Positions 21,013 through 41,922 of a stretch of 64,000 nucleotides of DNA are shown here, piece after piece. Position 1 is the first letter of the stretch. Each line of letters opens with the position of its first letter. The stretch comes from an uncultured Heliomicrobium sp. Lineage in GTDB: Bacteria; Acidobacteriota; Blastocatellia; RBC074. A program made the translations under genes and the position numbers. Location of the stretch: the NCBI GenBank assembly GCA_964603695.1, contig CAZRXE010000825.1:30642-94641 (forward strand), in the 5' to 3' direction. The notes beneath the pieces are model-generated. The model was not told the DNA's origin. It was given only the letters and a program-made list of their open reading frames with translations, and searched no databases.

Positions 21013-21036
21013 TTCAGCGAGCGTCAGATCAACAAT

Positions 21037-21073
21037 TCTCAGTATGTACAGCGAACTGTCAGTCCGCTGTACA
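21037..21073. repeat. Copy B of the palindromic repeat family, in the 64-bp spacer between the flippase and ATP-grasp genes.
   Basis: 'CAATTCTCagtaTGTACAGCGAACTgtcAGTCCGCTGTACA'. Confidence 0.5.
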
Positions 21074-21076
21074 CGT

Positions 21077-24545: not shown

Positions 24546-25555
24546 GATTCCGTTTTCTTGTATTCGATCAGCCGTCGCCGCCGCCCGGCTTTTCGGTCGC
24601 GCCAGTAACTCAATTGGCCGAAGAGTATCGGCACCTGCTGCACGTGCGAATGGATTCCGTAAAGCAGGCGGGTCAGCGGTTCCGGCGATTTCCAGCCGAC
24701 TTTAAGCGCCGTGCGCAGCGCCAGCAGCAGAAAAAGTCCCAACGCAATCAGCAACGGCCACACCGACAGCAACACGAGCGAACCGAGCAGACCGGCTGCG
24801 CCCAATCCCAAAATGACTGAGCCGTGAATCAGTGTTCGTTTGACTTCGCGTTCCCACAGCGGCTGGCCTGTGCCGCGAAAACGGTCGGAGACTTCGGCAT
24901 AAGCGTGGCCGGCGCGAAAGGCTCTGCGCCAATACTGCGACCAGCGCGTCATCGCCAGATCGTGACCGGTCATGGGCAAATCCAGATGTTGAATGACGTA
25001 GCCGCGTGAACGCATGCGGCGGCACATTTCCGGCTCTTCGCCCGCAATCAGCGTTTCGTCGTAACCGCTCACTTCTGCCAGCACCGCGCGCCGCATCAGC
25101 GCATCGCCGCCGCAAAATTCCGAAGGCCCCGGCGGATACACCCAATCCAGATCGAGCACGCGGTTGTAAATGGAATTTTCAGGATGCAATTCGCGGCGGT
25201 GTCCCCAAACAACAGCGACCTGCGGGTCGGCAAAGGCGCGGCTTGCTTCGGCAACGAAATCAGGATGCAAAACGGTGTCGCCATCCAGAAACAAAATCAC
25301 GGGTGCCTGGGCTGCGCGCCAGCCGGCATTGCGTCCCAACGCCGCCGATGGGCGTTCGGGGTGAACGACGATGACCTGCGCGCCGAGTTCGCGTGCGCGC
25401 TGCGGGCTGCCGTCGGTCGAATCCGAATCCACATAAATGATTTCGACGCCGCCAGAAAGAGGCCTGGCGGCTTTGACCGATTCGATGCAACGGACAAGCC
25501 GCGCGCCTTCGTTGCGCCCAATGATGACCACCGAAAGAGCAGGCGTTTGGTTCAT
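24542..25555 (-). CDS. Glycosyltransferase family 2.
   Basis: '[21 protein letters not shown]', '[10 protein letters not shown]', 'LDGDTV'. Confidence 0.8.
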
Positions 25556-26610
25556 CGCAATCCTCCCATCAACAATCGTCTGTAATCCGCCGAACGCGCC
25601 GCCGCAGAAAAGCGCGTCGCCAATGCCTGTCGCGCGCCGGCCACCACGCGATTGATCAAGTCCGCCGGAGCCTGACTCAATTCGCGCAAACGCGCTGCCA
25701 GCGCATCGGCCTGATTCGCCGCAAAGCGAAAGCCCGTTACGCCGTCTTCGATCAACGAACCCGCGCCGCCGCTGTCCGGCGCAAGCACCGGCACATTGGC
25801 GGCCATCGCTTCGATGATGGCCAGTCCGAAAGGCTCTTCCGGGCAGGTGTGAACCAGCAAATCCGCCTGCGCCAGTTCGCCGGCGACATCGTTGTGAAAA
25901 CCCGCAAAGTGAATGTTGGGATTGTTGGCCGCTGCGCGCGCGCGCATTTCGTCGAGTTGCCAGCCTGTGCCGTAAACGGACACCGGCAGCGTTTTAAGTT
26001 CAGTGTGCCGGTCAAACGCGTCCAGCAACACGTCCAGCCGCTTGATCGGGTCTACACGGGAAATGACGATCAGCTTGCGCACGCCGGCTTGCGTAAATTC
26101 CGCACGTTTGGGCGCGGCGGCAATTTGCGCATCAGGCAGGAAATTTTCGATGACGGTGATTTGTTCGGGCGCGACGCCATTGGCGATCAAACGCTCTTTG
26201 ACAAAACCGGAAACGGCCACAAAGGTGACGGGCGCGCCGTTCAATTTGCGTTTGCGCCCATAACTCAGCGCTTCATCCGTGCCGCCATGCACCATATGCA
26301 GATGCACGACCTTGCGGCGGTAAAGTTTGTTCCAGGCCAGACAGGCCAGCGAATGCGTAACGCCGGTGGCGACAAAGGCCAGTGTTTTATGTTGACCCAA
26401 AAAAGGACGCAGCTTCCAGGCGAATTCCAGCGGACTTGTGAAAGCTTCGGCGGCAAAGCCCATTTGCGCGGCTTCTCCAAGCGCGGGGCCGGGCGGCGCG
26501 AAAATGACCGGCTCGAATTCATCGGCCAGACTGGCCGCCGTTGCCAGCGCCATGCGCTCTGTGCCGTACAGATTGCCGCTGTGCAGCGCGTAGATGAGGG
26601 GGAGTTTCAT
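25552..26610 (-). CDS. Glycosyltransferase family 4.
   Basis: GT-B. 'EEPFGLAIIEAMAANVPVLAPDSGG'. Confidence 0.8.
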   Translation of the reverse strand: MKLPLIYALHSGNLYGTERMALATAASLADEFEPVIFAPPGPALGEAAQMGFAAEAFTSPLEFAWKLRPFLGQHKTLAFVATGVTHSLACLAWNKLYRRKVVHLHMVHGGTDEALSYGRKRKLNGAPVTFVAVSGFVKERLIANGVAPEQITVIENFLPDAQIAAAPKRAEFTQAGVRKLIVISRVDPIKRLDVLLDAFDRHTELKTLPVSVYGTGWQLDEMRARAAANNPNIHFAGFHNDVAGELAQADLLVHTCPEEPFGLAIIEAMAANVPVLAPDSGGAGSLIEDGVTGFRFAANQADALAARLRELSQAPADLINRVVAGARQALATRFSAAARSADYRRLLMGGLR

Positions 26611-26763: not shown

Positions 26764-29019
26764 TTACTTCCACAACCAGGGGGAAAGCAGTTTGCGCGCA
26801 GGCAGCCGCTTGCCGGTTTTGTATTCCTGCAATTGCTCGGCAAATGCGCCGCCTGCTTCGACAAGCTGCACGCGATTCAAAATTGCGCCGAAGGTTGGCG
26901 GTGCCAGTCGTTCCAGCGCCTGCAGGGCGCGTTTGATTTCGCCTTTGGACAGCGCGCCTGCTTCGACGACGAGCAGTGTGGCATCGGCCAATCCAATCAG
27001 CAGTTCCGCATCCACCGAAAGCAGCAACGGCGCGCAATCCAGCAGCACGAATTCATATTGCTCGGCCAATTGGCGGAGCGCCTGCCGATACTGGTCGAGC
27101 GTGGCCAGCGGGCGTTGTGCTGAAATTTCGCCAACCGCCAAACGATCCGGCAGCGTTTCATCGCCTGCAAGCACGGCTTTGCGCACGGTGGTTTGGTCAG
27201 TCAGCACTTCGATCAGACCTTCCTTGTTGGCCCCGCGACTTTGATAACGTTTGTCTGGCGTCAGCGGATTGGCTTCGACGGCGACGGCCTGCACGCCGAG
27301 TTTGGCCAGGAATCGCGCCGTTTCCAGCACAAGAGTGGATGAACCTTCGCCGTTTTTGGTCGAGGTAAAAGCGATGACGCGCGTGCCTTGCGCCAGACGA
27401 TCCTGATTTAACCGCGTTGCCAGACGCAGCAATTGATCCTGCGCGAACTGCTTCGTCTGTTCATCCCGCTGATCCAGAATCCAGGCGACCGGCGGAAATC
27501 CCAGCAGTTTTTGCAACTGCCCGGCCACGTGAATGCGCGGATCGAGTAGATCCACCGCAATAGGCGCAACGGCGGCCAGCGAAATCGCCGCCAGCATCAC
27601 CAGCGCCAGAAGCTTCTTTTTTCCGCCTTTGATCGGCAAATCCGGCACGCGCGCCTCAGACACCACGCGCACCCAGCCCGGCGCTGTGGATTCGAGCGAA
27701 AAGAAATCCACCCGCTCATCCATCGTCGCCAGCCGTTTTTGCAACCGGTCAATGTCCTCGCTCAAGGACACTGCTTCGTAATAGCGCGTGATGAACCAGG
27801 AAGCCTTTTCGCCGAGTGCCGTCACCTGCGCATCCAATTCGCGCTCGACGCGCTGGGTCTGTGCCAGCTCCGCACGGCGTTGATCCAGATAAATTGAGCG
27901 ATAGGATTTCGACAGCGTCCCGGTGGCGCGGGCGATTTCCTCTTCGATGTCGTTCAATTCGCGTTCAATGGCGGGGCGGCCCGGATGTTCTTTGGAAATG
28001 CCGCTCAATTTGGACAGCAACAGGCTGCGGCGGATGTACAGGTTGGATTTCAAACTGTTCAGCCCGGCGTCTTTGCCGGCCTGTTCCTCAGCCAGTGCTT
28101 CCACTGCGGGACGGTCGTTGGCTTCCAGTTTCTTTTCCAGCGCGTTTAATTTCGCTTCGGCCTGAATGCGTTCGCGGCGGGCGTTTTCCAAAGCGTCTTT
28201 GCTTTTGAACAGCAATTGGTCGTAAGGGTTCAACAGCGTGCCGCTGAAAGTGGTCACTCCGATTTCCTGCCCCAAAGCCGTCCGCCGGTCAAACAAGGTT
28301 TTCAATTCCTGCCGCAACCGGTCGCGTTCCTGATTGAGGTTTTCGCGCCGCTGATCCGCGCCGTACAGTTCTTCAGTTTTGGCGTGTTCCAGGTAAGTCG
28401 TCACCACCGAATTGACCACATCGGCGAGTCCTTCGGCCTTGCTGCCTTCCAGACCGATGGTGATTAAATACGAATCCGGCACAGGCTTGATGGACAGTTC
28501 GCGGGCCAGACGTTCCGTCGCGCGGCGGTCGTTTTCGGCTGGCAATTGATACAGCCGCCGTTTGTCGCCCAATCGCTGCAAGGCTTCCGAAACAATGTCG
28601 AAACGGTTGATGGTGTAAATCTGCTGCTGCACGAATTCGCGATACTGGCTGTTGGATTGCAATTCCAACTCCTGATCCGAATTCAGGTTTTTCAGAAAGC
28701 GCGAAGACACGCGAATCGCAGCTTCGGTATAGAATGCCGGTTTGCCCATCATCCAGGCGACAGGCGCGCCCGCTCCCAAAACAATCACGAAAATCGCCAG
28801 CGCCAATCCTTTATGCCGCTTCCAACTGAGTACTGGATTAATGCCGCGTCCGGGTGCGGTGGAAACCACACCTTTGCCCGCCACGGTGGCCACCGCCGGT
28901 TGAGGACTCCATTTTTCCTGTGGTGCGTCGGTCATACTTGGCGCACTTGCTTTCACCGCCAAACTTGCCGCAGCGGCGGCGGAAGCAACAGATTGATTGG
29001 AATCAGACTTCGCCTTCAT
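26764..29019 (-). CDS. Wzc/ExoP/GumC-like polysaccharide co-polymerase with C-terminal BY-kinase (P-loop) domain.
   Basis: Wzz-like periplasmic coiled-coil region between two TM segments. C-terminal 'VIAFTSTKNGEGSSTL', 'VLLDCAPLLLSVDAELL', 'LVVEAG' AAA_31/CbiA-like motifs. Confidence 0.85.
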   Translation of the reverse strand: MKAKSDSNQSVASAAAAASLAVKASAPSMTDAPQEKWSPQPAVATVAGKGVVSTAPGRGINPVLSWKRHKGLALAIFVIVLGAGAPVAWMMGKPAFYTEAAIRVSSRFLKNLNSDQELELQSNSQYREFVQQQIYTINRFDIVSEALQRLGDKRRLYQLPAENDRRATERLARELSIKPVPDSYLITIGLEGSKAEGLADVVNSVVTTYLEHAKTEELYGADQRRENLNQERDRLRQELKTLFDRRTALGQEIGVTTFSGTLLNPYDQLLFKSKDALENARRERIQAEAKLNALEKKLEANDRPAVEALAEEQAGKDAGLNSLKSNLYIRRSLLLSKLSGISKEHPGRPAIERELNDIEEEIARATGTLSKSYRSIYLDQRRAELAQTQRVERELDAQVTALGEKASWFITRYYEAVSLSEDIDRLQKRLATMDERVDFFSLESTAPGWVRVVSEARVPDLPIKGGKKKLLALVMLAAISLAAVAPIAVDLLDPRIHVAGQLQKLLGFPPVAWILDQRDEQTKQFAQDQLLRLATRLNQDRLAQGTRVIAFTSTKNGEGSSTLVLETARFLAKLGVQAVAVEANPLTPDKRYQSRGANKEGLIEVLTDQTTVRKAVLAGDETLPDRLAVGEISAQRPLATLDQYRQALRQLAEQYEFVLLDCAPLLLSVDAELLIGLADATLLVVEAGALSKGEIKRALQALERLAPPTFGAILNRVQLVEAGGAFAEQLQEYKTGKRLPARKLLSPWLWK

Positions 29020-30056
29020 TTCGTCAAACTGGAAAACACCAGCAGCAGCGAAGCGAAAGGATTGACCTTTTCGAGCACGTAGCCCACTTTCGCCAGCCGC
29101 CGGGGCGGCAGGTAAACAATGTCGCCTTCGTTTAACGAGTAATTGAGTTTTGAGTCAGGTTTGAGCAGTTTGTCGAACGTGAATTCGGCTTCAATCTGTT
29201 TGCCTTGCCGAATAATGTGCAGCTTGTTGGTGGAAGCATCGCGCGTCGGGCCGCCGGCCAGCGACAGCGCATCCAGAAACGACATGTTGGGCGTCAGGCG
29301 GTACGCGCCCGGCGTTTTCACTTCGCCCAGCACATAAACAAGCTGATCGTCCGAATCCGGCAAATAGACCAGATCATTGCGCTTCAAACGGATGTTCAGG
29401 GAAAGGTCTGTCGCGTTGAGCAGATTTTTCAGTTCAATCCAGACGACTTTGTCGCGGCCACGGAAGATGGCGCAGCGTGCCAACGCGGCTTTTTCCGCGC
29501 CGACGCCGCCAATCGGCAAACCGCCCGCCCGTGTAATCACTTCCAGCAGGGTCGGCGGATTGTCGAAGTAAAGCGTGCCGGGATTGGTGACACGGCCCAG
29601 AATCATGACGCGATTTGAGGTGTATTTGTCCACGCGCACCGTCACCAGCAAATTGTAGTAATACCGTTCCAGGGATTTTTTAATTTCTTCGGCGGCAGCG
29701 TCGCGTGTCAGCCCGGACACGATCAGCGAACCGGCGTGCTGCAAGGTGATTTTGCCATCCGGCCCAATGATGTGTTTGCCCGAAAGTTCCGGGTGATCCC
29801 ACACCTCTATGCTCAACTCGTCGCCCACGCCCAGCGAATAATCAATTTCATCGCCCGCATCGAACTGCGCCAGCAATTCGGCAGGCGTGAAGCTTTTGGA
29901 TTTATTCGGTGTGTTGAATGTGTCCTGCGGCACAGGTTTGGGCGCGTCCTGCGCAAACAGCGATGTCGCCAACAACAGCAACAGCGTTGGCAACAGCGCC
30001 GGCAGGAAACAATGAGAGCTAATTTTTTTCAGTACCTCGTGCATTCCTCGTTCCAC
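29016..30056 (-). CDS. Polysaccharide export protein, Wza/GumB-like (Poly_export plus SLBB).
   Basis: Signal peptide. 'YSLGVGDELSIEVWDHPELSG' Poly_export motif. SLBB-like repeats. 4-bp overlap with Wzc. Confidence 0.85.
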   Translation of the reverse strand: MERGMHEVLKKISSHCFLPALLPTLLLLLATSLFAQDAPKPVPQDTFNTPNKSKSFTPAELLAQFDAGDEIDYSLGVGDELSIEVWDHPELSGKHIIGPDGKITLQHAGSLIVSGLTRDAAAEEIKKSLERYYYNLLVTVRVDKYTSNRVMILGRVTNPGTLYFDNPPTLLEVITRAGGLPIGGVGAEKAALARCAIFRGRDKVVWIELKNLLNATDLSLNIRLKRNDLVYLPDSDDQLVYVLGEVKTPGAYRLTPNMSFLDALSLAGGPTRDASTNKLHIIRQGKQIEAEFTFDKLLKPDSKLNYSLNEGDIVYLPPRRLAKVGYVLEKVNPFASLLLVFSSLTK

Positions 30057-30074
30057 TCTGAAGCAGAAACATTG

Positions 30075-30755
30075 TCAGCGCAGCGCCGCTGTCAGCATTC
30101 CTTCAATGTCGGCAAAGCGCGTCAGATAGTCCTGATGACTATCTTCAATCACGGCCAGCGCCTCTGTATATCCGTAGATATGCGTGATTTCGACTTTGGC
30201 CGGCTCATCGCCCGGCACATTTTTGTAAGTCAGAAAGTAATGGCGCAGCCGTTCGATTAATGAAGCCGGACAATCGCTGATGTCCCGCCACGCGCCGTAA
30301 GCGGCGTCGCCTTCCATTACGGCAATGATTTTGTCGTCGGCTTCATCTCCATCAATCATGCTCAGGCCGCCAATCGGCACGGCCTGCAACAGAATATCGC
30401 CGTGCGGAATGACTTTTTCGGTCAGCACGCAAATGTCCAGCGGGTCGCCGTCGCCGACCAGTCCTTCGCGCCCGGCGCGTTGCGCCATTCGCGCCGCTAC
30501 GCGCTCGCCGCAATACGTTTGCGGAACCAAGCCATAATTTGACGGGCAGACGTTGGAAAATTTCTGCGGGCGATCCACTTTCAGCAGGCCTGTGGTTTTG
30601 TCCAATTCATATTTGACCGTGTCGCTGGGCACGATCTCGATATAGGCCGTCAACACGCGCGGAGCGTTTTCGCCCATTTCCACCCCGTGCCAGGGATGTG
30701 CCTTGAAAAGCAATCCCATCAATTTCCATAACGGATCGGGTTTGTCTGTTGCCAT
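30075..30755 (-). CDS. ppa: Inorganic pyrophosphatase, family I.
   Basis: 'DGDPLDICVL', 'YIEIVPSDTVKYELDK', 'NYGLVPQTY' signature residues. Confidence 0.9.
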   Translation of the reverse strand: MATDKPDPLWKLMGLLFKAHPWHGVEMGENAPRVLTAYIEIVPSDTVKYELDKTTGLLKVDRPQKFSNVCPSNYGLVPQTYCGERVAARMAQRAGREGLVGDGDPLDICVLTEKVIPHGDILLQAVPIGGLSMIDGDEADDKIIAVMEGDAAYGAWRDISDCPASLIERLRHYFLTYKNVPGDEPAKVEITHIYGYTEALAVIEDSHQDYLTRFADIEGMLTAALR

Positions 30756-30784
30756 TTCTGCTCGCTTTCCTCTTACAAAATGGA

Positions 30785-32017
30785 TTATTGCGCGCGGTAC
30801 TGCACCGAAGCTGCGGCGGGGACAACTTCGGATTTGGTTCGCGCGGCCTGGGCAATCAGTTGGAGCGCGGCGCTCCAGCCTTGTGCCGGATCGTAAAACT
30901 GTTCCTGGTAGGACAAACAGGCGCGGCGTTTGGCTTCATAAAAATTGTCGTCTGCCTGTAACCGCAAAATCGCATCGCCATACGCCGCCACATCGTCCGG
31001 CGGGACTTCGACCACAGCCTCTCGCACGCAGGCAATCGCCGGACAGACTGAAGACGTAATGACCGGACGCCCAGCCAACACGCTTTCAACCACGACCTGA
31101 TTGAAGCCTTCAATGAAATCCGTCGTAGTCGGGACGATGATGACATGCGATTGGCAAAGCATTTGTTGCATCACGTCGCGCGAACAATGGCCATGCGTGC
31201 GAAACCGTGCGCTGACGCCGGCCTGTTCCACAGCGGCACGCAACGCTTCGAGCGCAGAGCCTGTGCCGCATAAATCAAATTCGACCTGCGGTTGCTCTTC
31301 GCGTTGAAAGCGTCGGGCAATTTCCAGCAGATCAAAGACGCCTTTGTTGCGTTCAATTCTGCCGGCAAACAACACGCGGAACGGTGCGCGTTCCGCGGAC
31401 GGCAAAACCGCGTTGGCAAATGTTTCCCGGCGATACGTTGGCAAAAACGGCACCACGGGGCGCGGCTGGCCGCCGGTGATTTGCCGAATCTGTTCGGTGA
31501 TGTCTTCCGACGCGCTCATCACTGCAAAGCAGAATCGCCGAAACAACACGCCCGCCATTCGATTGAGCAACTGTTGCGCCTTGCCGGGCGCTTTGAATTT
31601 CGGCCACAACACGCAATGCACTGTGGGCACAAGCTTGATGCCGAGCAGCGGCAGCAAAAACAAAACAAACCAATGCGTTGTGCCTTCTGCAATCACCGCC
31701 AGATCGGCGCGAAAGCGCCAGGCTGTCCACGCCAGATGCAACCCATAGCGGATTTCCGTCAGGTGATAACCGATGCCGCGCGCAATGGGTTTCGGACGGT
31801 TTTCCAAAGTCATCTGCGCATCCTGAAACCGGTCAACGCGCGGGCACGATGACAACACGAACCCCGTCGCGTCCAGCTCGCGGCAGGCGTCAAAAAACTG
31901 CCCGCTGTAGGTCATCGAAACCTGCGAAGGATCGTCCTGCCCGTTGAGCCAATGCCGGTACGTGCCGACGACATCGCCCGGCCCAGCGGCATAGAAAATT
32001 CGCAAAGAATTGCTCAC
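30785..32017 (-). CDS. Glycosyltransferase family 4.
   Basis: GT-B. 'IEGFNQVVVESVLAGRPVITS'. Confidence 0.8.
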   Translation of the reverse strand: MSNSLRIFYAAGPGDVVGTYRHWLNGQDDPSQVSMTYSGQFFDACRELDATGFVLSSCPRVDRFQDAQMTLENRPKPIARGIGYHLTEIRYGLHLAWTAWRFRADLAVIAEGTTHWFVLFLLPLLGIKLVPTVHCVLWPKFKAPGKAQQLLNRMAGVLFRRFCFAVMSASEDITEQIRQITGGQPRPVVPFLPTYRRETFANAVLPSAERAPFRVLFAGRIERNKGVFDLLEIARRFQREEQPQVEFDLCGTGSALEALRAAVEQAGVSARFRTHGHCSRDVMQQMLCQSHVIIVPTTTDFIEGFNQVVVESVLAGRPVITSSVCPAIACVREAVVEVPPDDVAAYGDAILRLQADDNFYEAKRRACLSYQEQFYDPAQGWSAALQLIAQAARTKSEVVPAAASVQYRAQ

Positions 32018-32580
32018 CGTTCTCCCTGATACTGTAAGCGCAAGTCTTCCTGCTCGTTTGAGGGCGCAGTGCCTGCTGGCTTTTTCTTCGGTTTGATGAT
32101 GGCCGGCACGCCCACGGCGATGGAACCGGCAGGCACATCTGTCAGCACCACGGCGTTTGCGCCAATCGCCACGTCATCGCCAATGCGAATCGGCCCCAGG
32201 ATTTTCGCGCCTGCGCCGATGTCCACACGATTGCCGATGTTGGGCGCGCCGCGCACGCCTGTGCGCCGCAAGCCCACGGTGACGCCGTTGCGAATCGTCA
32301 CGTCATCGCCAAAGACTGCGTCGCCGCTGATGATGATGTCGCCGAAATGCTCGATCCTGAACCGCCGGCCAAGCGTCACTTCACAAGGCAGGTCAATGCC
32401 GGTCAAAATCTGACTGAGCACCTTCAGCCAGCGATAAACGAAGGAAAACGGCATCCGCAGCAACGCTGGTCGAATGCCATATCGCCAGCGTCCGAAGCGA
32501 TACACGGCCATCACCCACAAACCTTGCCGCGCAAGGTCTCGTTCGTAGGTTTCCCAATCCTGGCGCAGATTCGCGAACAT
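32014..32580 (-). CDS. Serine-O-acetyltransferase-like hexapeptide acetyltransferase (CysE/WcaB family).
   Basis: 'ILTGIDLPCEVTLGRRFRIEHFGDIIISGDAVFGDDVTIRNGVTVG...RVDIGAGAKILGPIRIGDDVAIGANAVV'. The ATG at 32580 follows 'GGAGG'. Confidence 0.75.
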   Translation of the reverse strand: MFANLRQDWETYERDLARQGLWVMAVYRFGRWRYGIRPALLRMPFSFVYRWLKVLSQILTGIDLPCEVTLGRRFRIEHFGDIIISGDAVFGDDVTIRNGVTVGLRRTGVRGAPNIGNRVDIGAGAKILGPIRIGDDVAIGANAVVLTDVPAGSIAVGVPAIIKPKKKPAGTAPSNEQEDLRLQYQGER

Positions 32581-32611: not shown

Positions 32612-32950
32612 TTATTCGCGAAACGCCGCCAGCGCTTCTTCGCGGGTGTTGTAAATGTCAAAGACGCGATGCATGCGCACCAGTTCAAACAGCGCCCGCA
32701 CGGGTTTCTGCATGCCGGTCAGTTTCAAATCACCGCCGCCAGCGTTCAGTTGTCGCAAACAAGACAGGATTGCGCCCAGGCCGGAACTGTCCACGAATTT
32801 CAATCCGCTCATATCGAAAATGACTCGCGCCTTTCCGTTCAGTGCGGGCAGCACGTCGCGCTTGAATTCTTTGGCATTTCCCGCATCCAGCGATTCGACT
32901 GGAATCTGAAAAATCGTCGTGTTCTCGACGGTTTCAAATGTTGCTTCCAT
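32612..32950 (-). CDS. STAS-domain anti-sigma-factor antagonist (SpoIIAA/RsbV/SypA-like).
   Basis: 112 aa. 'LDAGNAKEFKRDVLPALNGKARVIFDMSGLKFVDSSGLGAI' contains the conserved phosphorylatable Ser in the 'DSSGLG' context. The ATG at 32950 follows 'GGAGG'. Confidence 0.8.
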   Translation of the reverse strand: MEATFETVENTTIFQIPVESLDAGNAKEFKRDVLPALNGKARVIFDMSGLKFVDSSGLGAILSCLRQLNAGGGDLKLTGMQKPVRALFELVRMHRVFDIYNTREEALAAFRE

Positions 32951-35021
32951 GAATTCCTCCATCAATGGTTTTGAATAAAGAAATGGTGTGACGCCCCTGG
33001 CGATCCGTTTCGTAAACGACCTTGTCCACCAATTCTGAAATAATGAACAGGCCGAAGCCGCCATCTTTTGAACCATCAAAAGTCGGTTCCGGGGCCGTTG
33101 CCGGATCGAAGGGCAAGCCTTGATGACGAATGACAAAACTGATCTGGTTTGCCTCTGTCGAACTAAAAAGCTGTATCGGTTGATCTTCCTGCTCTCGATA
33201 CGCGTGTTCCATGACGTTGGCGACCGCTTCATTAACGGCCAGTTCCAACTCGCTGATAACTTCTTCTCCAACCTCTGGGCAGGCTGTTAGGCAGGCTTGC
33301 CGTACGAAATCGCGGCACAGGGTCAGGCTTCGCGGATCGCTCAGCAGGCGCAGTTCCGCCAGTGGAGTAGGATTGGCTTGTGCCAGGACGCGCACGGCCA
33401 CACAGGTCAGGTCATCGCCCAGAGTTTCGCGGCCTGCGAAAGCCAGCACAGTTCGATGCACATCGGCAACAAGCGATTCGGGATCAAGCCTGCAATTACG
33501 CCGGAGCATTTCCAGCATTCGTTCTTCACCGAAAACTTCGCCGTCGGCATTGGTCGCCTCGGTCAATCCGTCCGAGTAAAAAAAGAACAGATCGCCCGGC
33601 ACCAGCGGATACGTGGATTGCTCGTACCTTTCATCCTCAATAAAGCCAATCGGCAGATTGACGCCTTTCAGCAATTCATAGGCGTATGCATCAGGACGAC
33701 AGCGCACTGCGGCGGTGTGTCCGCAATCTACAATTCGCACCTGTTGCGCGGCCAGATCAAAGCGCGCGTAACAAAGCGTCACGAAACTTTCCAGGGTGAT
33801 GAGTTGATGAACAACTTCTTCATGCACGCGGGCGACGATTTCATGCGGTTCCGGCAGGGTTTGTTGCCCGGTCGAGAAAAGCTGGTTCAAGGCGCGTTGA
33901 AAGGCACTTTTAGTGGCTGCGCCGACCAACGCCGCCGGAATGCCTTTGCCCATTACGTCGCCATTGATGATGTCCAGACAGTTCTTGTGCGGCTGAATGA
34001 ATTCATAAAAGTCGCCGTCAATCATCCGCGAAGGAACCGAAAGCACGGCGACTTGCAGGCCGGAAAACGAATCCGGGATTTTTCCGCGCAATAGCATTTG
34101 CTGGATTCTGGAGCCGATCTCGATTTCCTGGCGCAACCGTTCGCTTTCCAATTCCGTGCGGTGCAGCCGTTCGTTTTCGATGATAATCGCTGATTGAGTG
34201 GCCAGAGCGGACAAAAAACGCATGTCGTGCGAATCAAATTCGCCGCCGACCTCTTCCTGCCAGACCACGAGGATGCCGAGGGTTTTCAGGCCGGTGGTCA
34301 GCGGCACAATGGCCACATTGCAGGCAACGGACAACTCCGGTTCCAGGTCGGGTTGCGCGGCAATGCGGTCCCGGCCATTTAACAACAGCCCGTTCCTTTC
34401 CGCAGTGACTTTGCCCAGCAAGCCGCCCGCAATCGAACGCGGGATCAGGTTTTCCACGCCCTGCGCCATCGGATGGTAATTCCCGTCCCGTTCCAGCCAG
34501 AGTACGGCCTTCAACCCGGCGCGATAAGACGTGGCGCGGTGCAAAATGCGCGGCAGAAATTCCAGCGGCTTAATCAAGGAATTCAGGTCTGTGCTGATTT
34601 CATAAATGGCTTCCAGGCTTTCCCAACTGGCACTCAGTTCATCCAGCAACATCTCTTCCTGTTGTTCCAGCCCCGCCTGCCGGTCAAGCAGCACCAGTAA
34701 CTGTTGGACGGAGGCGAACAGCGTTGGTTGCGATTCCGGCGCGCAAACCAGCAATTGTCCTGCACCACATTTCAGTGTCTGACAGGTTCGATTTGCCGGA
34801 CAGGCTTCGATCACGCAATCCGGCGTCAAATCTTTTTGAGAAGAGCAGGGACAAAACGCCCCGCGAGCCAACCAGATTGGCAGTTGACCAACGCAATAAA
34901 CCAAGCCGGTACTGGCTGCCTGAGCAAACGGCACAATGACTTTGTGCAATTCGCTCAGCAGTCTTTGCTCAGCAGGGCTGAGAACAGACAGCAGTTCCAC
35001 GGCTGGGCCAATCGTTGTCAT
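32934..35021 (-). CDS. Partner-switching enzyme fusion: Cys-rich N-terminal region, GAF domain, PP2C (SpoIIE-type) phosphatase, and a C-terminal RsbW-like GHKL serine kinase.
   Basis: Eight Cys in residues 43-93. PP2C motifs 'GDFYEF', 'GDVMGKG', 'FFFYSDGLTEA'. C-terminal HATPase_c 'LAVNEAVANVMEHAY', 'GGFGLFIISELVD'. Confidence 0.8.
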   Translation of the reverse strand: MTTIGPAVELLSVLSPAEQRLLSELHKVIVPFAQAASTGLVYCVGQLPIWLARGAFCPCSSQKDLTPDCVIEACPANRTCQTLKCGAGQLLVCAPESQPTLFASVQQLLVLLDRQAGLEQQEEMLLDELSASWESLEAIYEISTDLNSLIKPLEFLPRILHRATSYRAGLKAVLWLERDGNYHPMAQGVENLIPRSIAGGLLGKVTAERNGLLLNGRDRIAAQPDLEPELSVACNVAIVPLTTGLKTLGILVVWQEEVGGEFDSHDMRFLSALATQSAIIIENERLHRTELESERLRQEIEIGSRIQQMLLRGKIPDSFSGLQVAVLSVPSRMIDGDFYEFIQPHKNCLDIINGDVMGKGIPAALVGAATKSAFQRALNQLFSTGQQTLPEPHEIVARVHEEVVHQLITLESFVTLCYARFDLAAQQVRIVDCGHTAAVRCRPDAYAYELLKGVNLPIGFIEDERYEQSTYPLVPGDLFFFYSDGLTEATNADGEVFGEERMLEMLRRNCRLDPESLVADVHRTVLAFAGRETLGDDLTCVAVRVLAQANPTPLAELRLLSDPRSLTLCRDFVRQACLTACPEVGEEVISELELAVNEAVANVMEHAYREQEDQPIQLFSSTEANQISFVIRHQGLPFDPATAPEPTFDGSKDGGFGLFIISELVDKVVYETDRQGRHTISLFKTIDGGIHGSNI

Positions 35022-35461
35022 TGTTTACTTACCTCCGCCACTTCAGTAGCAGAAATGGGAATTCGCGGCGGAATGCCTCCCGCTGCCAGTTGATTGAGCA
35101 GCGATGACGGCGCAACGGGTTTTTCGCAGTGCAAATTGGCTCCGGCCTGCAACATCTCTCCAGCGCGTTCCTCGAACGAGCGCGCCGATAAGACTGCAAT
35201 GAACAGATGTTCATAACGAGTTTGCGCTCGCAAGTATTGCAAGACATCCAGGCCGGACAGTTTGGGCATAACCAAATCCAGCAACACTGCATCAGGCTTA
35301 AATTGTTCAACCTGCGCCAGCGCTTCTTCACCGTCAGAAGCGACACAGACTTCATAGCCTGCTTTTTTCAGGACAAATTCCAAAAACCTGGCAATGTGAC
35401 GTTCGTCATCAACAACCAGCACACGGGCTGCGCGCAAAGGACTGATCGTTATTGCTTGCAT
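35018..35461 (-). CDS. Stand-alone response-regulator receiver (REC) protein.
   Basis: 'RVLVVDDERHIARFLEFVLKKAGYEV', 'DAVLLDLVMPKLSG', 'EKP'. 4-bp overlap with the downstream phosphatase-kinase gene. Confidence 0.8.
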   Translation of the reverse strand: MQAITISPLRAARVLVVDDERHIARFLEFVLKKAGYEVCVASDGEEALAQVEQFKPDAVLLDLVMPKLSGLDVLQYLRAQTRYEHLFIAVLSARSFEERAGEMLQAGANLHCEKPVAPSSLLNQLAAGGIPPRIPISATEVAEVSKQ

Positions 35462-36099
35462 GATCCTCCTTATACTGTGTGGAAGGGACGTGCGTGTTTC
35501 TCAAAAAGGGAAAACGCCTCGGTTCGTGGTCGGACGAGAATTCCGGGAAGAGGCATCGCGGCAAATGCCCTTATTCCGGTGGCTTTGGCCCAACAAGAAA
35601 ATTGCTCCATCAAAACTTCAACCCATTTCCGTTGATGAGGGGGCATTGAATATAGCGGCGAATTGTGGCGAATCGCGTCAGACAGCCAAGTCGCATTTGG
35701 GGGAACAAACGAACTCATCAGTATAATCCTATGGTATGTGTTTTTCTCTGTTCGCGTGGGATAGCCTCAGGCCGAGACTGCAAACATTTAGAATGTAAGA
35801 CGAACGCAACCTTAACTTTATTACGATTCTGTTATTTGTCGGAATTTTTCCGTCAGAGGCAGCTCCATTTTTACAGCATTGAGAGGAAGCACTCACAAAA
35901 ACTTTCTTTATCAGGTCTTTTCAAAGGTTCATTGCCGGACTTAAACCTATAAATTACAAATCTTCCAAAGCTTCATTCCAAATCCATCTCAACTTGTAAA
36001 ATGCCATCTGACATTGAGCGAAGTATACGGTATTCACGCCAGTGTACAACCAGAAAGCATAACAAAATCTATTGTGGGAAGTTTTTGGGCAGGGAAGGT
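35462..36099 (-). promoter_or_regulatory. 638-bp AT-rich intergenic region upstream of the REC, phosphatase/kinase, STAS and EPS transcription unit.
   Basis: Sharp GC drop relative to the flanking genes. No credible ORF. This is the only place a promoter for the minus-strand operon can lie. Confidence 0.4.
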
Positions 36100-37482
36100 T
36101 TACGACAAAGTTCGGCGAAACCTGTAAGGTAAAACTTGAGCCATCAGGCCAGTCGCAGCTTGTGTTGTCGTGGATTTTGTTTCCTTCCCCCAAAGCAGAT
36201 AACCTTCCGCCCACCCGGTCAGCAGGAAAAAGATAGGGATCAACTGATTGCCCATAAAAACCGTGGCGATGGAAAAGAGAATCACCCAGTAAATACCCAG
36301 CAAAGTGAAATTGAGCGAGCTGCCGGGCGGATACGAGGGCGTTTCGTTCATGCCGCGCCAGAACAATCGTCCCATAAACCAGATGAAGATCGCGAGAAAC
36401 AGACCCAGCGCCAGCAATCCGTGCATGAGCGCCAGCAGCAGGTAGTAATTGTCAATTGAAGTCATGCCATCTACCTTGGGCCAGTAGTTCCGTCCCCAGC
36501 CAAACACACTTTTTTGCAAAGCAATGTCCAGGTATTTATCAATCAATTCCTTGCGGTAGGCCGCTGATTCCTGGGCAACGGTTTTCGCTCCTGCGCGGCC
36601 CACCGAAACGTATTGCCAAAACGCAATGCCTATGGGCGTGCCGATGACTACCAGCGTTACCAAAATCACCGTGACTGTTTTCCAGCGATTTTTTTGCCTG
36701 CCGATGGCCGTGACCACTGCGCCCAACACACCACCAATCCAGGGGCCGCGTACCATCGTCATCACTACGCCGCTGAGAATTCCTAACGTAATCAACCGCG
36801 CCTTGCTTACAAGTTTAATAGGGTGAAACCTTTTGAATTGCGGTTCCCAATAACCTGACCATTCCAGCCATCTTTGCAAACGATAGGCAATAATCAGAAT
36901 AATGCCCGCCAAAATGGCGTGTCCGTATGGGCCTGCCACGCGCGCAAAGCCCCAGCGGAAGGTTGTCACCCAACCCGCCCCTTGTCCCGGAAAAAAGCGA
37001 TCCAATATCATTCGCCAGGGAGTGGCCCCCATTTTGAATTCGTAGGCTGAAATCAGCGAAATGATGAACAGCAGCCAGGTCAGCCGCCTGGCGAACTCAA
37101 CGCGCAACCCATTTGGTTCCACCAGGCCTTTGGCCAGAGCATAGGGCAGCGCCACCCAACAGATCATTTCAAACATCAGGTTCTGCGCATCGTTGTACCC
37201 CGCATTCAGGTACTCTGAATAACCCACGGCAAGCGCATACCCGCCAACCAGAATATCCGCAAATGAGAAGCGCCATCGCCTGCCCTGTTGGATAAAGAAG
37301 AACGCAGCAATAGGCAAAATCGCGGACATGCTGAAGGTTGGATCAGGCAATCCTGGCGCAATCCAACGGTAATAGTCCGGCATAAGCAACAAGGTCGGCA
37401 GGTACACGTCAAAAAAGGCATGCCGCGGAGACTTTACCCAGGCAATGTAAATAGCAATCAAGCTTGGTAATAAGGCAATCAT
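36100..37482 (-). CDS. Wzy-type polymerase / O-antigen-ligase-family membrane protein.
   Basis: 460 aa, 10 or more TM helices, a large periplasmic loop, Wzy_C-like region 'YLLLALMHGLLALGLFLAIFIWFMG'. Confidence 0.7.
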   Translation of the reverse strand: MIALLPSLIAIYIAWVKSPRHAFFDVYLPTLLLMPDYYRWIAPGLPDPTFSMSAILPIAAFFFIQQGRRWRFSFADILVGGYALAVGYSEYLNAGYNDAQNLMFEMICWVALPYALAKGLVEPNGLRVEFARRLTWLLFIISLISAYEFKMGATPWRMILDRFFPGQGAGWVTTFRWGFARVAGPYGHAILAGIILIIAYRLQRWLEWSGYWEPQFKRFHPIKLVSKARLITLGILSGVVMTMVRGPWIGGVLGAVVTAIGRQKNRWKTVTVILVTLVVIGTPIGIAFWQYVSVGRAGAKTVAQESAAYRKELIDKYLDIALQKSVFGWGRNYWPKVDGMTSIDNYYLLLALMHGLLALGLFLAIFIWFMGRLFWRGMNETPSYPPGSSLNFTLLGIYWVILFSIATVFMGNQLIPIFFLLTGWAEGYLLWGKETKSTTTQAATGLMAQVLPYRFRRTLS

Positions 37483-37978: not shown

Positions 37979-38545
37979 ATGTACGGCTTGGTAAACAAAG
38001 CTATTGAAGGATTGGTATGTCAGGTCGCAGGTCAGGACGCCTGGCAGGACATTAAGCGGGTCGCAGGAATAGACGTGGACTATTTTATCAGTATGAATCC
38101 GTATCCTGATGACGTGACTTACAAGCTGGTCGGCGCGGCAAGCCAGGTACTTGGCTTGCCAGCCGAAGACATCTTACAGAAATTTGGTGAATACTGGATT
38201 TTGTACACCGGGCAAGAAGGCTACGGGGATTTGTTGACACGCTCTGGGCGAAATTTGAAAGAGTTTCTGATGAACCTGGACAACATACATGCGCAGGTGG
38301 GATTAAGCTTTGAAAAGCTGCAACCGCCGTCGTTCCGCTGCACGGAAGTGGACGACAATTCATTAGTCCTACACTATTATTCGGCGCGCCCGGGACTTGG
38401 CCCAATGATCATTGGTTTATTGCAAGGGTTGGGCAAAATGATGAATACGCGCGTTGAAGTCGCCTACATACTCAATCGCGCTGAGGGGGCAAGCCACGAC
38501 GAATTCCTGGTTCGCTACAATGCAATCAACAGTGAGGTGACTTAA
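37979..38545 (+). CDS. hnoX: H-NOX sensor protein, sGC-beta1 / Nostoc type.
   Basis: 'MYGLVNKAIEGLV' canonical start. Proximal His in 'LDNIHAQV'. 'PSFRCTEVDDNSLVLHYYSARPGL' matches sGC beta1 '[25 protein letters not shown]' including the Y-x-S-x-R motif. Confidence 0.9.
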   Translation: MYGLVNKAIEGLVCQVAGQDAWQDIKRVAGIDVDYFISMNPYPDDVTYKLVGAASQVLGLPAEDILQKFGEYWILYTGQEGYGDLLTRSGRNLKEFLMNLDNIHAQVGLSFEKLQPPSFRCTEVDDNSLVLHYYSARPGLGPMIIGLLQGLGKMMNTRVEVAYILNRAEGASHDEFLVRYNAINSEVT

Positions 38546-38550
38546 TTTAT

Positions 38551-41500
38551 ATGGGTGAGCCGCGTTTCGGACTTTCTCCAAAGCATTTCGCGGAGGCATT
38601 TCCATTCCATTTCGTGCTGGATCGCGACCTGCGGATTGTGCAAGCGGGCAAGGCGCTGGAGCAAATCTGCCGGATCAAGCTGGGAGTAGCCTTTTCCGTT
38701 GCCTTTTATATTGTCCGTCCCAATCTTCACCCTACCTTTGAAGCGATTGGTGACCGACAAAATACGCTGTTTTTGTTGCGGCCAAATAGTGTCCCCATTC
38801 AATTAAAGGGCCAATTCCTGAAAACGGATGCAACGCTCATTTTTCTCGGCTCGCCCAAAATCACTGAACTCAGGGAATTGGATGAACTGGAACTGTCGTT
38901 GATTGATTTTCCCGTGCATGATTCGACCACGCACTATCTGCCGTTGCTGCAAACTTCCAAAATGGCCTTGCGAGAGGCAAATAACCTGGCGGAAATGTTG
39001 GCCAAACAGCGTGCGGAACAGAGCCGGATTAATAGCGAACTGACGGTGCAATTTGAAGTCACGCGGGTTTTGGAAATCGCCGCCTCGCTCGAAGATGCTA
39101 TTCCCAGATTGCTAAGCGCGATTGGCGGCGGATTGGATTGCGGGGTCGGCGAGTTCTGGCAGGTGGATGAAGCAAAGGGGCGGCTTTACTGCGTTGAAAT
39201 GTGGAGCCAATCGCCGGAAAAACATGCGGCCTTTGCACCGGGAACACAGCATTTTAACTTTGCAAAAGGCGAAGGCTTACCAGGTATTACCTGGGAATGC
39301 GGGGAACCTGTTGGTTTTGAGAATGTGACTACCAACCCACGATTTTTACGGGCGGAAGCGGCTCAGGCTGCCGGACTACAAAGTGCTTGGGCGTTTCCTT
39401 TGCAAAGCGGAGGCGACGTGTCAGGTGTGATGGCATTTTACTGCGCTCAGTCTCTCTACTCTGATGAGCGGCTCCAGGCGCTGCTTCGAAACCTCAGCAG
39501 CCAGATTTCACAATTCATTGAGCGAAAACAGGCCGAAAAAGCCTCGCGCGAGGTTGAAACCCGGTATCGCGTGGTCGCCGAAACCGCTTCGGATGCCATT
39601 ATTACGCTGGACCAGGAAAGTCATATTTTGTTTGCCAATCAGGCCGTGGAGCGTATTTTCGGCCATTCTCGCGAATTCCTGATCGGTCAGAAAATCACCT
39701 GTCTGATGCCGAAGGAAATGCAGACCGCGCACAATCGTGGCATTACACGCTATCTCAGGATCAAAAAAAGGCACATTTCGTGGAGCGGGGTTGAAGTGTG
39801 GGGACTGCATCGCGATGGGCACCAGATTCCGCTTGAAGTTTCCTTTTCCGATTACGTCCTCAAAGATCAGCATTTGTTCACAGGTTTTGTTCGTGATATT
39901 TCGCAGCGCAAGCAGGCGGAAGAGCAGTTGCGCGCGGCCAATTCGCGGCTGGCCGCGCTACTGTCAAACTTACAAGACGGCATTCTGGTCGAAGATGAAG
40001 AGCGCCGCCTCGTGCTGGTCAATCAGGAATTCTGCCGCATCTTTGGGATTGAAGCTTCACCGAAGGCCATGGTGGGCGCAGACTGCGCCCAAGCCGCCGA
40101 AAATCTGAAAGGGATTTTTGCCGATTCTGCGCTGTTTCTTTCGCGCATTACAGCGATCCTGGCTGAGCGTCAAGTCGTCGTCAATGAAGAGATTGCACTG
40201 CTTGATGGACGAACGCTGGAACGCAATTACGTGCCGATTTTCGCGGGCGAGATTTACCGAGGACATCTGTGGTCATACCGCGACATCACAACTCGAAAGC
40301 GCATTAAAGAAGAACTGAAAGAGGCCAAAGATTTAGCTGAAAGTGCCAATCTGGCGAAGAGCCAGTTTCTGGCCAATATGAGCCACGAAATTCGCACGCC
40401 GATGAATGCAGTCATTGGCTTGACCGGGCTGTTGCTTGATACGGAATTAAACGCCCAGCAGCGCGATTACCTGCAAACGATTCGCAGCAGCGGCGAGGAC
40501 TTGCTGACGATCATCAATGACATTCTGGATTTCTCGAAGATCGAATCGGGCCGGCTCGAATTAGACTGGCATCCCTGCGATCTACGCCTTTGCCTGGAAG
40601 AAGCCCTGGACTTGCTCGCCACGCGGGCCGCCGAAAAGAAACTGGAGCTTGCCTGCGTGATTGAAAGCGGCACGCCCGCGCACGTGGTCACGGATGCGAC
40701 TCGTTTACGGCAAATTCTGGTCAACCTGCTCAGCAACGCCGTCAAATTCACCGAAGCCGGTGAAGTGGTGGTTCAGGTGCTGGCAGAACCGCTTGACAAC
40801 GGCCAATACGAAATCCGTTTTTCGGTCCGAGACTCTGGCATAGGCATTCCGGCAGAGCGCATGGACAGGCTGTTCCGTTCGTTTTCGCAAGTAGACGCTT
40901 CGACAACACGCACGTATGGCGGCACGGGTCTGGGACTGGCCGTCTGCAAACGACTGACGAAAATGTTGGGCGGCAAAATCTGGGCGGAAAGCGAATTCGG
41001 AGCCGGCTCGACCTTCTTTTTCACCATTCGCGCGGAACCGGCCGCGCCGCTCAATCCACCTTCCGAACAAGGCGCGGCTGAGTCTTTGCGCCACAAACGT
41101 GTGCTGGTAGTGGACGACAATGCGACCAGTCGTCTGATTCTGCGGCGTCAGATGCAGGATTGGGAAATGCTGCCGCGCGTGACCGCTTCAGCCCACGAAG
41201 CGCTGAGCTGGATCCGCGCCGGGGAAACATTCGACGTGGCGCTTCTGGATATGCGCATGCCGGAAATGGACGGATTGCGGCTGGCCTCACTAATTCAGGC
41301 CGAGCGCGGGAACTCACTGCCCATTGCCATTTTCAGTTCCATCAACCGCCGCGAATTGGAAAACGAACGTGATGAATTGGCTGGCGCGACTCTGCCAGAA
41401 GTGGCCGGTGTGTTGACCAAGCCGATCAAGTCTGGCCAGTTGCGCACCTTGTTGCTGAACATCCTGGCCAAGAGTTCGACCGCCGCCAAACCCTTGCTCG

Positions 41501-41922
41501 CTCCACGCCCCGTTTCCGCCAGCCCCAAGTCGCAATCGCGACTGCGCGTGCTGGTGGCGGAAGACAATATCGTCAATCAACGAGTGGCAGCTCTGATGTT
41601 GCAAAAACTGGGGTATGGGGCCGATATCGTCGGCAACGGTCTGGAAGCTTTGGAAGCCCTGCGCCGCCAGCCCTACGATATCGTCTTGATGGATTTACAA
41701 ATGCCTGAAATGGACGGCATGGAAGCCACCCGCCAAATTCGCGCCCAAAGTGCGGCCTGGAAACAGCCACGCATTATCGCCCTCACCGCCAATGCCATGA
41801 GAGGCGACCGGGAATTATGTCTGGCAGCGGGCATGGACGATTATCTGAGCAAACCCTTGCGGCTCGAAGATCTGCAAGCCGCGTTGCGGCGTTGCAGCGA
41901 GACGCCTTATAGCGATTTGTAG
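38551..41922 (+). CDS. Hybrid sensor histidine kinase with N-terminal HNOBA (H-NOX-associated PAS-like) domain. Domain order: HNOBA, GAF, PAS, PAS, HisKA, HATPase_c, REC, REC.
   Basis: 'FPFHFVLDRDLRIVQAGKAL', 'LKGQFLKTDATLIFLGSP', 'LIDFPVHDSTTHYLPLL' parallel the sGC beta1 HNOBA 'FPFHIIFDRDL', '[20 protein letters not shown]', 'LSDIPLHDATRDLVLL'. The PAS/HisKA/HATPase core is paralogous to the 6776-9769 kinase. Start is 5 nt after the H-NOX stop. Confidence 0.85.
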   Translation: MGEPRFGLSPKHFAEAFPFHFVLDRDLRIVQAGKALEQICRIKLGVAFSVAFYIVRPNLHPTFEAIGDRQNTLFLLRPNSVPIQLKGQFLKTDATLIFLGSPKITELRELDELELSLIDFPVHDSTTHYLPLLQTSKMALREANNLAEMLAKQRAEQSRINSELTVQFEVTRVLEIAASLEDAIPRLLSAIGGGLDCGVGEFWQVDEAKGRLYCVEMWSQSPEKHAAFAPGTQHFNFAKGEGLPGITWECGEPVGFENVTTNPRFLRAEAAQAAGLQSAWAFPLQSGGDVSGVMAFYCAQSLYSDERLQALLRNLSSQISQFIERKQAEKASREVETRYRVVAETASDAIITLDQESHILFANQAVERIFGHSREFLIGQKITCLMPKEMQTAHNRGITRYLRIKKRHISWSGVEVWGLHRDGHQIPLEVSFSDYVLKDQHLFTGFVRDISQRKQAEEQLRAANSRLAALLSNLQDGILVEDEERRLVLVNQEFCRIFGIEASPKAMVGADCAQAAENLKGIFADSALFLSRITAILAERQVVVNEEIALLDGRTLERNYVPIFAGEIYRGHLWSYRDITTRKRIKEELKEAKDLAESANLAKSQFLANMSHEIRTPMNAVIGLTGLLLDTELNAQQRDYLQTIRSSGEDLLTIINDILDFSKIESGRLELDWHPCDLRLCLEEALDLLATRAAEKKLELACVIESGTPAHVVTDATRLRQILVNLLSNAVKFTEAGEVVVQVLAEPLDNGQYEIRFSVRDSGIGIPAERMDRLFRSFSQVDASTTRTYGGTGLGLAVCKRLTKMLGGKIWAESEFGAGSTFFFTIRAEPAAPLNPPSEQGAAESLRHKRVLVVDDNATSRLILRRQMQDWEMLPRVTASAHEALSWIRAGETFDVALLDMRMPEMDGLRLASLIQAERGNSLPIAIFSSINRRELENERDELAGATLPEVAGVLTKPIKSGQLRTLLLNILAKSSTAAKPLLAPRPVSASPKSQSRLRVLVAEDNIVNQRVAALMLQKLGYGADIVGNGLEALEALRRQPYDIVLMDLQMPEMDGMEATRQIRAQSAAWKQPRIIALTANAMRGDRELCLAAGMDDYLSKPLRLEDLQAALRRCSETPYSDL

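Follow-up and report, generated by a model that had tools for sequence, protein, structure and literature searches.

A 64,000-nucleotide stretch of metagenomic DNA – from an uncultured bacterium deposited as Heliomicrobium sp. and placed by GTDB in the Acidobacteriota (Blastocatellia; RBC074), assembly GCA_964603695.1, contig CAZRXE010000825.1, positions 30,642 to 94,641 of the forward strand, hereafter the window – carries three adjacent genes encoding a stand-alone receiver, a sensor-phosphatase-kinase fusion protein and a single-domain STAS protein, followed on the same strand by genes for polysaccharide synthesis. Our data point to this triad as a probable serine partner switch that would be controlled by a phosphorelay and would act post-transcriptionally upon the polysaccharide machinery encoded downstream. 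The original prediction, drawn from the sequence alone, had seen in the three genes a module resembling SypA/SypE of Vibrio fischeri, translationally coupled to the head of an exopolysaccharide (EPS) operon.

The genes lie on the minus strand in the order receiver, fusion, STAS, co-directional and where the original prediction had placed them. Open reading frames (ORFs) and Pfam agree with it on their nature (REC, a PP2C plus RsbW-type kinase fusion, and STAS), and an independent gene caller applied to identical public contigs returned the same products (147, 695 and 112 residues, then an acetyltransferase of 188 residues); NCBIfam gave generic superfamily matches only for the three triad proteins, all under equivalog cut-offs. 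Both junctions within the triad had been described as 4-bp overlaps. This is true of receiver and fusion, where the receiver stop sits on the fusion start (ATGA), but the overlap between fusion and STAS is 17 nt (26-32 nt in orthologues), with the STAS ATG at 32950 and a GGAGG 7 nt 5′ of it. A Shine-Dalgarno sequence, AAGGAGG, precedes the receiver gene. The coupling proposed between the triad and the EPS operon survives as co-directionality and close spacing; the STAS stop and the acetyltransferase ATG (32580) do not overlap, being separated by a 31-nt spacer that bears AGGAGG. A scan of positions 26000-38600 revealed no intergenic terminator-like site between STAS and the enzyme genes, all terminator-like sites lying within coding sequence; counts of sigma-70 promoters and intrinsic terminators in the same scan were at chance level, and an internal promoter is thus neither shown nor excluded.

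The proteins retain most of the residues of a partner-switching module. The STAS motif FVDSSGLG matches FMDSSGLG of SpoIIAA column for column, which places the phosphorylatable site at Ser55 (32788..32786), aligned with Ser58 of SpoIIAA – a position fixed by the S-to-A mutant chain 1tid_B – and conserved in 148 of 150 representatives of the STAS subfamily; the serine that had been picked out in DSSGLG is therefore well founded. Equally secure are the metal-binding aspartates of the PP2C domain, whose loss would have told against the prediction: D337, D355 (in GDVMGKG), D484 (in SDG), D536 and D537 are invariant in 120/120 homologues. The receiver possesses the acidic pair D18/D19, the phospho-acceptor D62 – which aligns with the phospho-Asp column of RR468/PhoP – and S92 and K114.

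A critical issue is the state of the kinase domain. The N-box (E598/N602/H606) is conserved in 119 of the 120 homologues, as are the glycines of the G2 box in most (G655 in 110, G657 in 118). In GHKL proteins the aspartate of the G1 box contacts adenine. At this position, aligned with the Asp of RsbW (6m36, vaDeGdsF) and of SpoIIAB (1th8, vrDeGvG), the fusion has His633 (33125..33123, minus strand), and the expectation of intact ATP-lid residues thus holds for the N-box and the G2 box but not for the canonical G1-box aspartate. Across the 120 homologues the position is occupied by His in 88, Asp in 20 and Tyr in 10; in 81 related loci from many phyla (L003-L090; loci are given L numbers and proteins P numbers) it is His in 45, Asp in 19, Tyr in 13 and Asn in 3. 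Even close orthologues alternate between Asp and His (Asp in P0020, P0022, P0024 and P0026). Because His, Tyr or Asn prevail among homologues and related loci, the substitution is, on these alignments, a trait of the family and not a lesion. From the spread of His, Asp and Tyr within the family and among close orthologues it follows that kinase competence of the fusion is plausible; we infer that ATP could still be used with His633.

Ahead of these catalytic domains lies a region that had been singled out for eight cysteines, as a possible redox or metal input. The AlphaFold 2 (AF2) model, with a predicted local distance difference test (pLDDT) score of 89.9 for the full-length fusion and 89 for residues 1-150, depicts residues 7-95 as a helix and four strands, from which a long helix (100-146) leads into the GAF domain. 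All eight cysteines are present (residues 43, 57, 59, 69, 74, 80, 85 and 93), but only four are conserved among 120 homologues: C57 in 91, C59 in 89, C69 in 56 and C93 in 107. Since the other four are not, an "eight-Cys" sensor is, by this comparison, partly lineage noise.

Gene fusions tell which parts of the triad belong together. In five orthologues of the fusion protein (P0012, P0016, P0029, P0091 and P0115; 38-55% identity) a STAS domain forms the C-terminus, and the fusions checked across the STAS subfamily are kinase-STAS, REC-kinase-STAS or PP2C-kinase-STAS, plus one with CHASE3. In the kinase-bearing fusions STAS immediately follows an RsbW-type kinase domain, and by this architecture the STAS protein of the window and the kinase domain of the fusion protein are cognate partners. 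A comparable argument applies to the receiver: relatives from Desulfobacterota and other phyla combine REC, PP2C and kinase, in that order, in a single ORF with a STAS gene next (L018, L021, L022, L024, L026, L027, L034, L036, L040-42 and others), and the N-terminal fusion of REC in these ORFs argues that the split receiver of the window would work on the fusion protein.

Evidence for a role in polysaccharide synthesis comes from the neighbourhood. Homologues of the fusion protein are acidobacterial (Blastocatellia, Pyrinomonadaceae, Bryobacterales), those labelled "Blastocatellia bacterium" being 64-66% identical, and orthologues at 40-72% identity keep the order receiver-fusion-STAS, usually with genes for Hpt-bearing hybrid kinases and for polysaccharide synthesis on their flanks. 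At 12 loci with full-length orthologues the receiver is upstream in every case and STAS directly downstream in 11; among related loci from different phyla, 47 of 78 have STAS immediately 3′ of the fusion gene. In L083 (61% identity) two hybrid kinases with Hpt precede the triad and an acetyltransferase, GT4/Wza, Wzc, glycosyltransferases (GTs) and a flippase follow STAS; in L084 (58%) a giant hybrid kinase precedes it, and an NTP-transferase, acetyltransferase, H-NOX and histidine kinase (HK) with Hpt follow; in L085 (55%) two Hpt kinases stand upstream and an NTP-transferase, acetyltransferase and GT4 downstream. After STAS, L086 (45%) has an NTP-transferase, phosphodiesterase, GT2, Wzy and flippase, and L090 (41%) a GT4 and a PAS kinase. 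L089 (40%), with GT and sugar-nucleotide genes upstream, continues after STAS with Bac_transf, Bac_transf/WecG and a hexapeptide protein, then HK-Hpt: that is, with exactly the trio that closes the operon of the window – a small priming phosphoglycosyl transferase (PGT), a WecG-type transferase and a hexapeptide/Bac_transf-like protein. These same genes are the commonest companions in other phyla (L023, L034, L036, L040-42, L057, L061, L063, L073), where the PGT is 57-76% identical. When all related loci were compared with a panel of polysaccharide enzymes, matching genes lay within 6 kb on the same strand downstream at 17 of 62 loci and upstream at 5 of 64 (Fisher p = 0.0046). Co-occurrence of the triad with EPS loci in other genomes, which the original prediction had proposed as a check, is thus seen in several relatives (L083-L086, L089, L090 and L093).

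The association was also approached from the opposite direction. The PGT belongs to a strongly conserved family (71-93% identity over the best 120 clusters), and three of its homologues were picked solely for lying on long contigs (L091, L092 and L093): STAS was recovered in 3/3. In L093 a full triad, REC/GAF-PP2C-kinase/STAS, is divergent from PGT-WecG-hexapeptide-kinase genes, and after its STAS come GT4, GT2, GT2, an acetyltransferase, Wza and a Wzc-sized gene. L091 and L092 have a hybrid kinase and a free Hpt, then the PGT and hexapeptide protein, adjoining a gene in which the two halves of the proposed connection are fused: a WecG-STAS-STAS protein of 513 residues, whose WecG domain (residues 72-248) is 32% identical to that of the window and whose STAS domains carry FIDSSGLG (first) and FVDNSGIF (second). 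Of the best 120 clusters that this protein retrieved, at least 118 have a WecG+STAS architecture; they are mostly from Desulfobacterota, and some bear the JGI label "WecB/TagA/CpsF family protein/anti-anti-sigma factor". The conserved neighbourhood and these fusions suggest that direct regulation of glycosyltransferases, and not of sigma factors, is a common role of STAS proteins. The same two loci (1200-3500, 5700-9000) encode PEP-CTERM (exosortase-sorting) proteins, together with the hybrid kinase and free Hpt, upstream of the PGT, which hints at a tie between the cassette and exosortase systems.

A candidate source of the input is also encoded nearby. Two pairs, each of an H-NOX gene and a hybrid kinase gene, bracket the polysaccharide cluster (37979-41922, plus strand; 6776-10336, minus strand); both H-NOX proteins retain the haem-ligating proximal His and the YxSxR motif, and the second pair has an orthologous pair following the triad in L084. 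The gene array of the window contains a hybrid kinase with Hpt, and hybrid kinases with Hpt stand directly upstream of the receiver in L083-L085. This is consistent with a receiver fed through Hpt by hybrid kinases, and as to which kinase feeds it, the enzyme at the operon tail is our candidate.

Taken together, the following mechanism is envisaged. Hybrid histidine kinases of the locus, two of them paired with H-NOX haem gas sensors, would pass phosphate via Hpt to Asp62 of the receiver; the receiver, the N-terminal Cys-containing domain and the GAF domain would then set the balance between the PP2C and RsbW-type kinase activities of the fusion, both of which would act on Ser55 of STAS. Unphosphorylated STAS is predicted to bind and activate an initiating complex of the priming PGT and the WecG-type transferase (14055..11934), while phospho-STAS would be inactive or back on the kinase domain. 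The polarity is predicted by analogy: in SypA (PMC3610818) and All4160 (PMC13555669) the unphosphorylated STAS is active, and in HsbR the phosphorylated receiver promotes the phosphatase (PMC6482189). That the target is the pair of initiating glycosyltransferases is what the neighbourhood and the gene fusions lead us to predict.

Several observations weigh against this mechanism and are best considered alongside the alternatives to which they give rise. The system is known here from genes alone, on metagenomic contigs. Fusions of STAS to Bac_transf are absent from the 150 closest STAS representatives and from the 120 closest PGT homologues, and the window STAS shares only about 27% identity with the STAS domains attached to WecG. 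Moreover, members of the kinase family can sequester sigma factors, and the main alternative to a switch acting on enzymes is a classical one acting on transcription: the RsbW-like domain would hold a sigma factor encoded at a distance, and unphosphorylated STAS would free it. The kinase domain is indeed homologous to the anti-sigma kinases RsbW and SpoIIAB, and the module heads its operon much as rsbV-rsbW head the sigB operons under their control. CrsR and HsbR, which share its domain order, bind RpoS (PMC6482189). We nonetheless judge this explanation unlikely. Neither the large ORFs of the window nor ten annotated orthologue neighbourhoods include a sigma-70-family gene, the conserved neighbours are enzymes and not regulators, and STAS domains have become fused to glycosyltransferases in two lineages (PMC13555669; the WecG-STAS proteins).

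The absence of the canonical adenine-contacting G1-box Asp of SpoIIAB/RsbW is a further difficulty, and allows that the kinase domain is dead through His633 and merely docks STAS, the protein being a signal-regulated phosphatase and scaffold while some other kinase acts on STAS. His, Tyr or Asn at this position in most of the family would fit, as would the separation of phosphatase (HenR) and kinase (Alr3423) in Anabaena (PMC13555669). However, the near-invariant N-box and G2 glycines are hard to explain without nucleotide binding, the alternation of Asp, His and Tyr among close orthologues suggests that these residues are interchangeable, and the window has no second RsbW-type kinase gene; we consider a dead kinase decidedly improbable. 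Finally, L087 lacks obvious polysaccharide neighbours and L088 has only sugar-nucleotide genes, upstream, as might be expected were the triad a general stress or signalling module whose adjacency to polysaccharide genes is coincidental. To this we attach very little weight, given that polysaccharide synteny recurs at 40% to 72% identity and across phyla, that the downstream enrichment is significant, and that the search begun from the PGT recovers STAS every time. A partner switch acting on the polysaccharide enzymes remains the reading we prefer.

Comparison with known systems places the module more precisely. The best fold match in the PDB to the whole AF2 model is the RsbU and RsbW domains of Rv1364c from M. 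tuberculosis (3ke6; Foldseek E 1e-18; 18-19% identity), a protein which likewise has sensor, phosphatase and kinase in this order. Rv1364c is a single sensor-RsbU-RsbW-RsbV chain, whereas the window STAS is a separate, overlapping ORF; the five orthologues with a fused STAS reproduce the Rv1364c order. Its sensor is a PAS domain, unlike the GAF-like domain plus GAF found here. Rv1364c is tied to control of SigF and is not known to be linked to polysaccharide genes.

Also close, in domain order as described (PMC6482189), are HsbR-HsbA of Pseudomonas aeruginosa and CrsR-CrsA of Shewanella oneidensis: one protein joins a PP2C domain to an RsbW-type kinase/anti-sigma domain behind it, a single-domain STAS encoded next to it is its cognate partner, and the output acts on biofilm. 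In the HptB-HsbR-HsbA system the receiver is fed by hybrid kinases via Hpt, and the phosphorylated receiver favours the phosphatase activity of HsbR (PMC6482189). The REC-PP2C-kinase layout of these proteins is exactly that of the Desulfobacterota relatives of the window protein. In the window, by contrast, REC is a separate gene, the N-terminus comprises a small Cys-containing domain and a GAF, and the module sits inside a polysaccharide operon with no evident FlgM, RpoS or diguanylate-cyclase partner.

The resemblance to Syp is of a different kind. In V. fischeri a pair of kinase and phosphatase activities (SypE) sets the phospho-state of a single-domain STAS protein (SypA) in a Wzx/Wzy-type polysaccharide locus, the unphosphorylated form being needed for biofilm (PMC3610818), and hybrid kinases and an H-NOX sensor (SypF, HnoX-HahK) feed the system (PMC12369376). 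Here too the single-domain STAS gene belongs to a polysaccharide locus, on the same strand as its first EPS gene. The order of SypE – N-terminal kinase, central REC, C-terminal PP2C (PMC3610818) – is, however, the reverse of the sensor-GAF-PP2C-kinase order, its REC is internal, and it has neither GAF nor Cys domain. Because the domain order is opposite, and is instead that of HsbR/CrsR and Rv1364c, the module is Syp-like in logic, not in family: the original comparison stands for the former, where it extends to H-NOX proteins and hybrid kinases, and must be given up for the latter.

For the output, the nearest parallel is cyanobacterial. In Anabaena, the Bac_transf enzyme All4160 bears a fused STAS domain, and phosphorylation of the serine in this domain switches the enzyme off, its state being set by the RsbW-type kinase Alr3423 and the REC-PP2C phosphatase HenR (PMC13555669). 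As we propose for the window, a STAS serine there (and in XssP of Synechocystis) switches a polysaccharide-initiating sugar transferase with no sigma factor involved (PMC13555669). The arrangement differs: in Anabaena STAS is fused to the enzyme while phosphatase and kinase are separate, and in the window STAS is free while phosphatase and kinase are fused. The authors of that study found few proteins combining STAS and Bac_transf outside cyanobacteria, and read the strategy as lineage-specific (PMC13555669).

Control of this type is therefore known; what is new is a widely conserved layout. Its interest lies in a cross-phylum link to initiating glycosyltransferases, in the STAS-glycosyltransferase fusions and in a double H-NOX input. 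More tentatively, and with rather less conviction than we have in the local switch, we suggest that the window exemplifies a cassette shared by Acidobacteriota, Planctomycetota, Desulfobacterota, Bdellovibrionota, Chlamydiota and Betaproteobacteria, in which hybrid kinases (some with H-NOX) would signal via Hpt to a receiver and PP2C/kinase, and thence to STAS, with a priming PGT of about 250 residues and a WecG-type transferase as direct target, and in which a His/Tyr G1 box would mark a distinct, active branch of GHKL serine kinases. If so, the STAS-on-enzyme switch of cyanobacteria extends to many phyla, in unfused and WecG-fused form, and a candidate emerges for the partner, long unknown, of STAS proteins of the SypA type, the target of SypA itself being unknown (PMC4517449). 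The locus offers a testable circuit that leads from gas or redox sensing through a phosphorelay and a serine phospho-switch to a polymer-starting enzyme. Exopolysaccharide production has a formative influence on the aggregation of soil, on biofilms and on the storage of carbon. For Acidobacteria, which rank with the most abundant bacteria of soil, almost nothing is, to our knowledge, known of how it is regulated. Coordinates of the triad and of other features are collected in Table 1.

Table 1. Features of the window, with the WecG-STAS-STAS genes of two other loci
Feature	Position	Strand	Evidence
Stand-alone receiver (REC), 147 aa	35018..35461	-	Pfam PF00072 3e-26
Fusion protein, 695 aa	32934..35021	-	Pfam; AF2 model pLDDT 89.9
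N-terminal small alpha/beta sensor-like domain, residues 7-95	34737..35003	-	AF2 model
Conserved Cys codon C57	34853..34851	-	
Conserved Cys codon C59	34847..34845	-	
Conserved Cys codon C69	34817..34815	-	
Conserved Cys codon C93	34745..34743	-	
GAF domain, residues 154-282	34176..34562	-	PF01590 2e-7, PF13185 2e-6
PP2C/SpoIIE phosphatase domain, residues 348-545	33387..33980	-	PF07228 1e-42
RsbW/SpoIIAB-type GHKL serine-kinase domain (HATPase_c_2), residues 561-678	32988..33341	-	PF13581 3e-25
Single-domain STAS, 112 aa	32612..32950	-	Pfam PF01740 4e-21
First operon block	26764..32580	-	Pfam, NCBIfam
Hexapeptide acetyltransferase	32580..32014	-	Pfam
GT4	32017..30785	-	Pfam
Inorganic pyrophosphatase, between GT4 and Wza	30755..30075	-	Pfam
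Wza	30056..29016	-	Pfam
Wzc-like	29019..26764	-	Pfam
Mid-operon: GT4, GT2, acetyltransferase, GT4, 568-aa ORF, ATP-grasp, GT4, 737-aa ORF, GT2, GT2	14073..26610	-	Pfam
Conserved initiating trio, proposed STAS target	10432..14055	-	Pfam, NCBIfam
Small priming phosphoglycosyl transferase (PGT; Bac_transf, 244 aa)	14055..13321	-	
Bac_transf-fragment + WecG/TagA transferase	13313..11934	-	
NTP-transferase/hexapeptide/Bac_transf-like protein	11922..10432	-	
H-NOX-2	10336..9779	-	HNOB 3e-45
PAS-PAS-HisKA-HATPase-REC-Hpt hybrid kinase, operon tail; candidate phosphodonor for receiver	9769..6776	-	Hpt 2e-12
Wzy_C / O-antigen-ligase-like membrane protein, upstream, co-directional, 638 nt from receiver	36100..37482	-	PF04932 5e-12
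H-NOX-1, divergent	37979..38545	+	HNOB 4e-52
HNOBA-GAF-PAS-PAS-HisKA-HATPase-REC-REC hybrid kinase, divergent	38551..41922	+	Domain matches
MacB-like permease gene	47860-50349	+	
MacB-like permease gene	50359-52782	+	
MacB-like permease gene	59316-61973	+	
WecG-STAS-STAS gene, L091	12396-13937	-	
WecG-STAS-STAS gene, L092	12437-13981	-	

The polysaccharide genes 3′ of the triad extend over some 25 kb of the same strand, no gap between them exceeding 153 nt, as identified by Pfam and NCBIfam. The acetyltransferase, GT4, Wza and Wzc genes expected directly downstream are all there, with a pyrophosphatase gene, previously overlooked, between GT4 and Wza. A pyrophosphatase inside the operon may pull NDP-sugar synthesis forward, and one also occurs near the triad orthologue in L088. 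Each protein of the initiating trio contains Bac_transf-related sequence: the PGT itself, a C-terminal fragment on the WecG transferase and a weak tail on the hexapeptide protein.

Two large ORFs of the cluster, one of 737 residues (16289-18502, minus strand) and one of 568 (21077-22783, minus strand), match nothing in Pfam or NCBIfam. The former is 41% identical to a related protein encoded in the Sulfuritalea locus L057, and in L091 and L092 unannotated genes of similar size come after the flippase; the latter occupies the position of the Polysacc_synt flippase of L083.

Between the Wzy-like gene and the receiver a stretch of 638 nt (35462-36099) is without a called gene, and orthologues carry a hybrid kinase there. 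A remnant of such a kinase was looked for in this gap and none was found; a scan of the whole window against Rfam gave zero matches. The stretch includes an ORF of 82 residues (35718..35470), the end of which is 8 nt from the start of the receiver.

Further along, on the plus strand (47860-61973), are at least three paralogous genes for MacB-like ABC permeases (MacB_PCD + FtsX, 807-885 residues), with ORFs of 853 and 802 residues lying between them (52779-57758); all appear unrelated to the triad.

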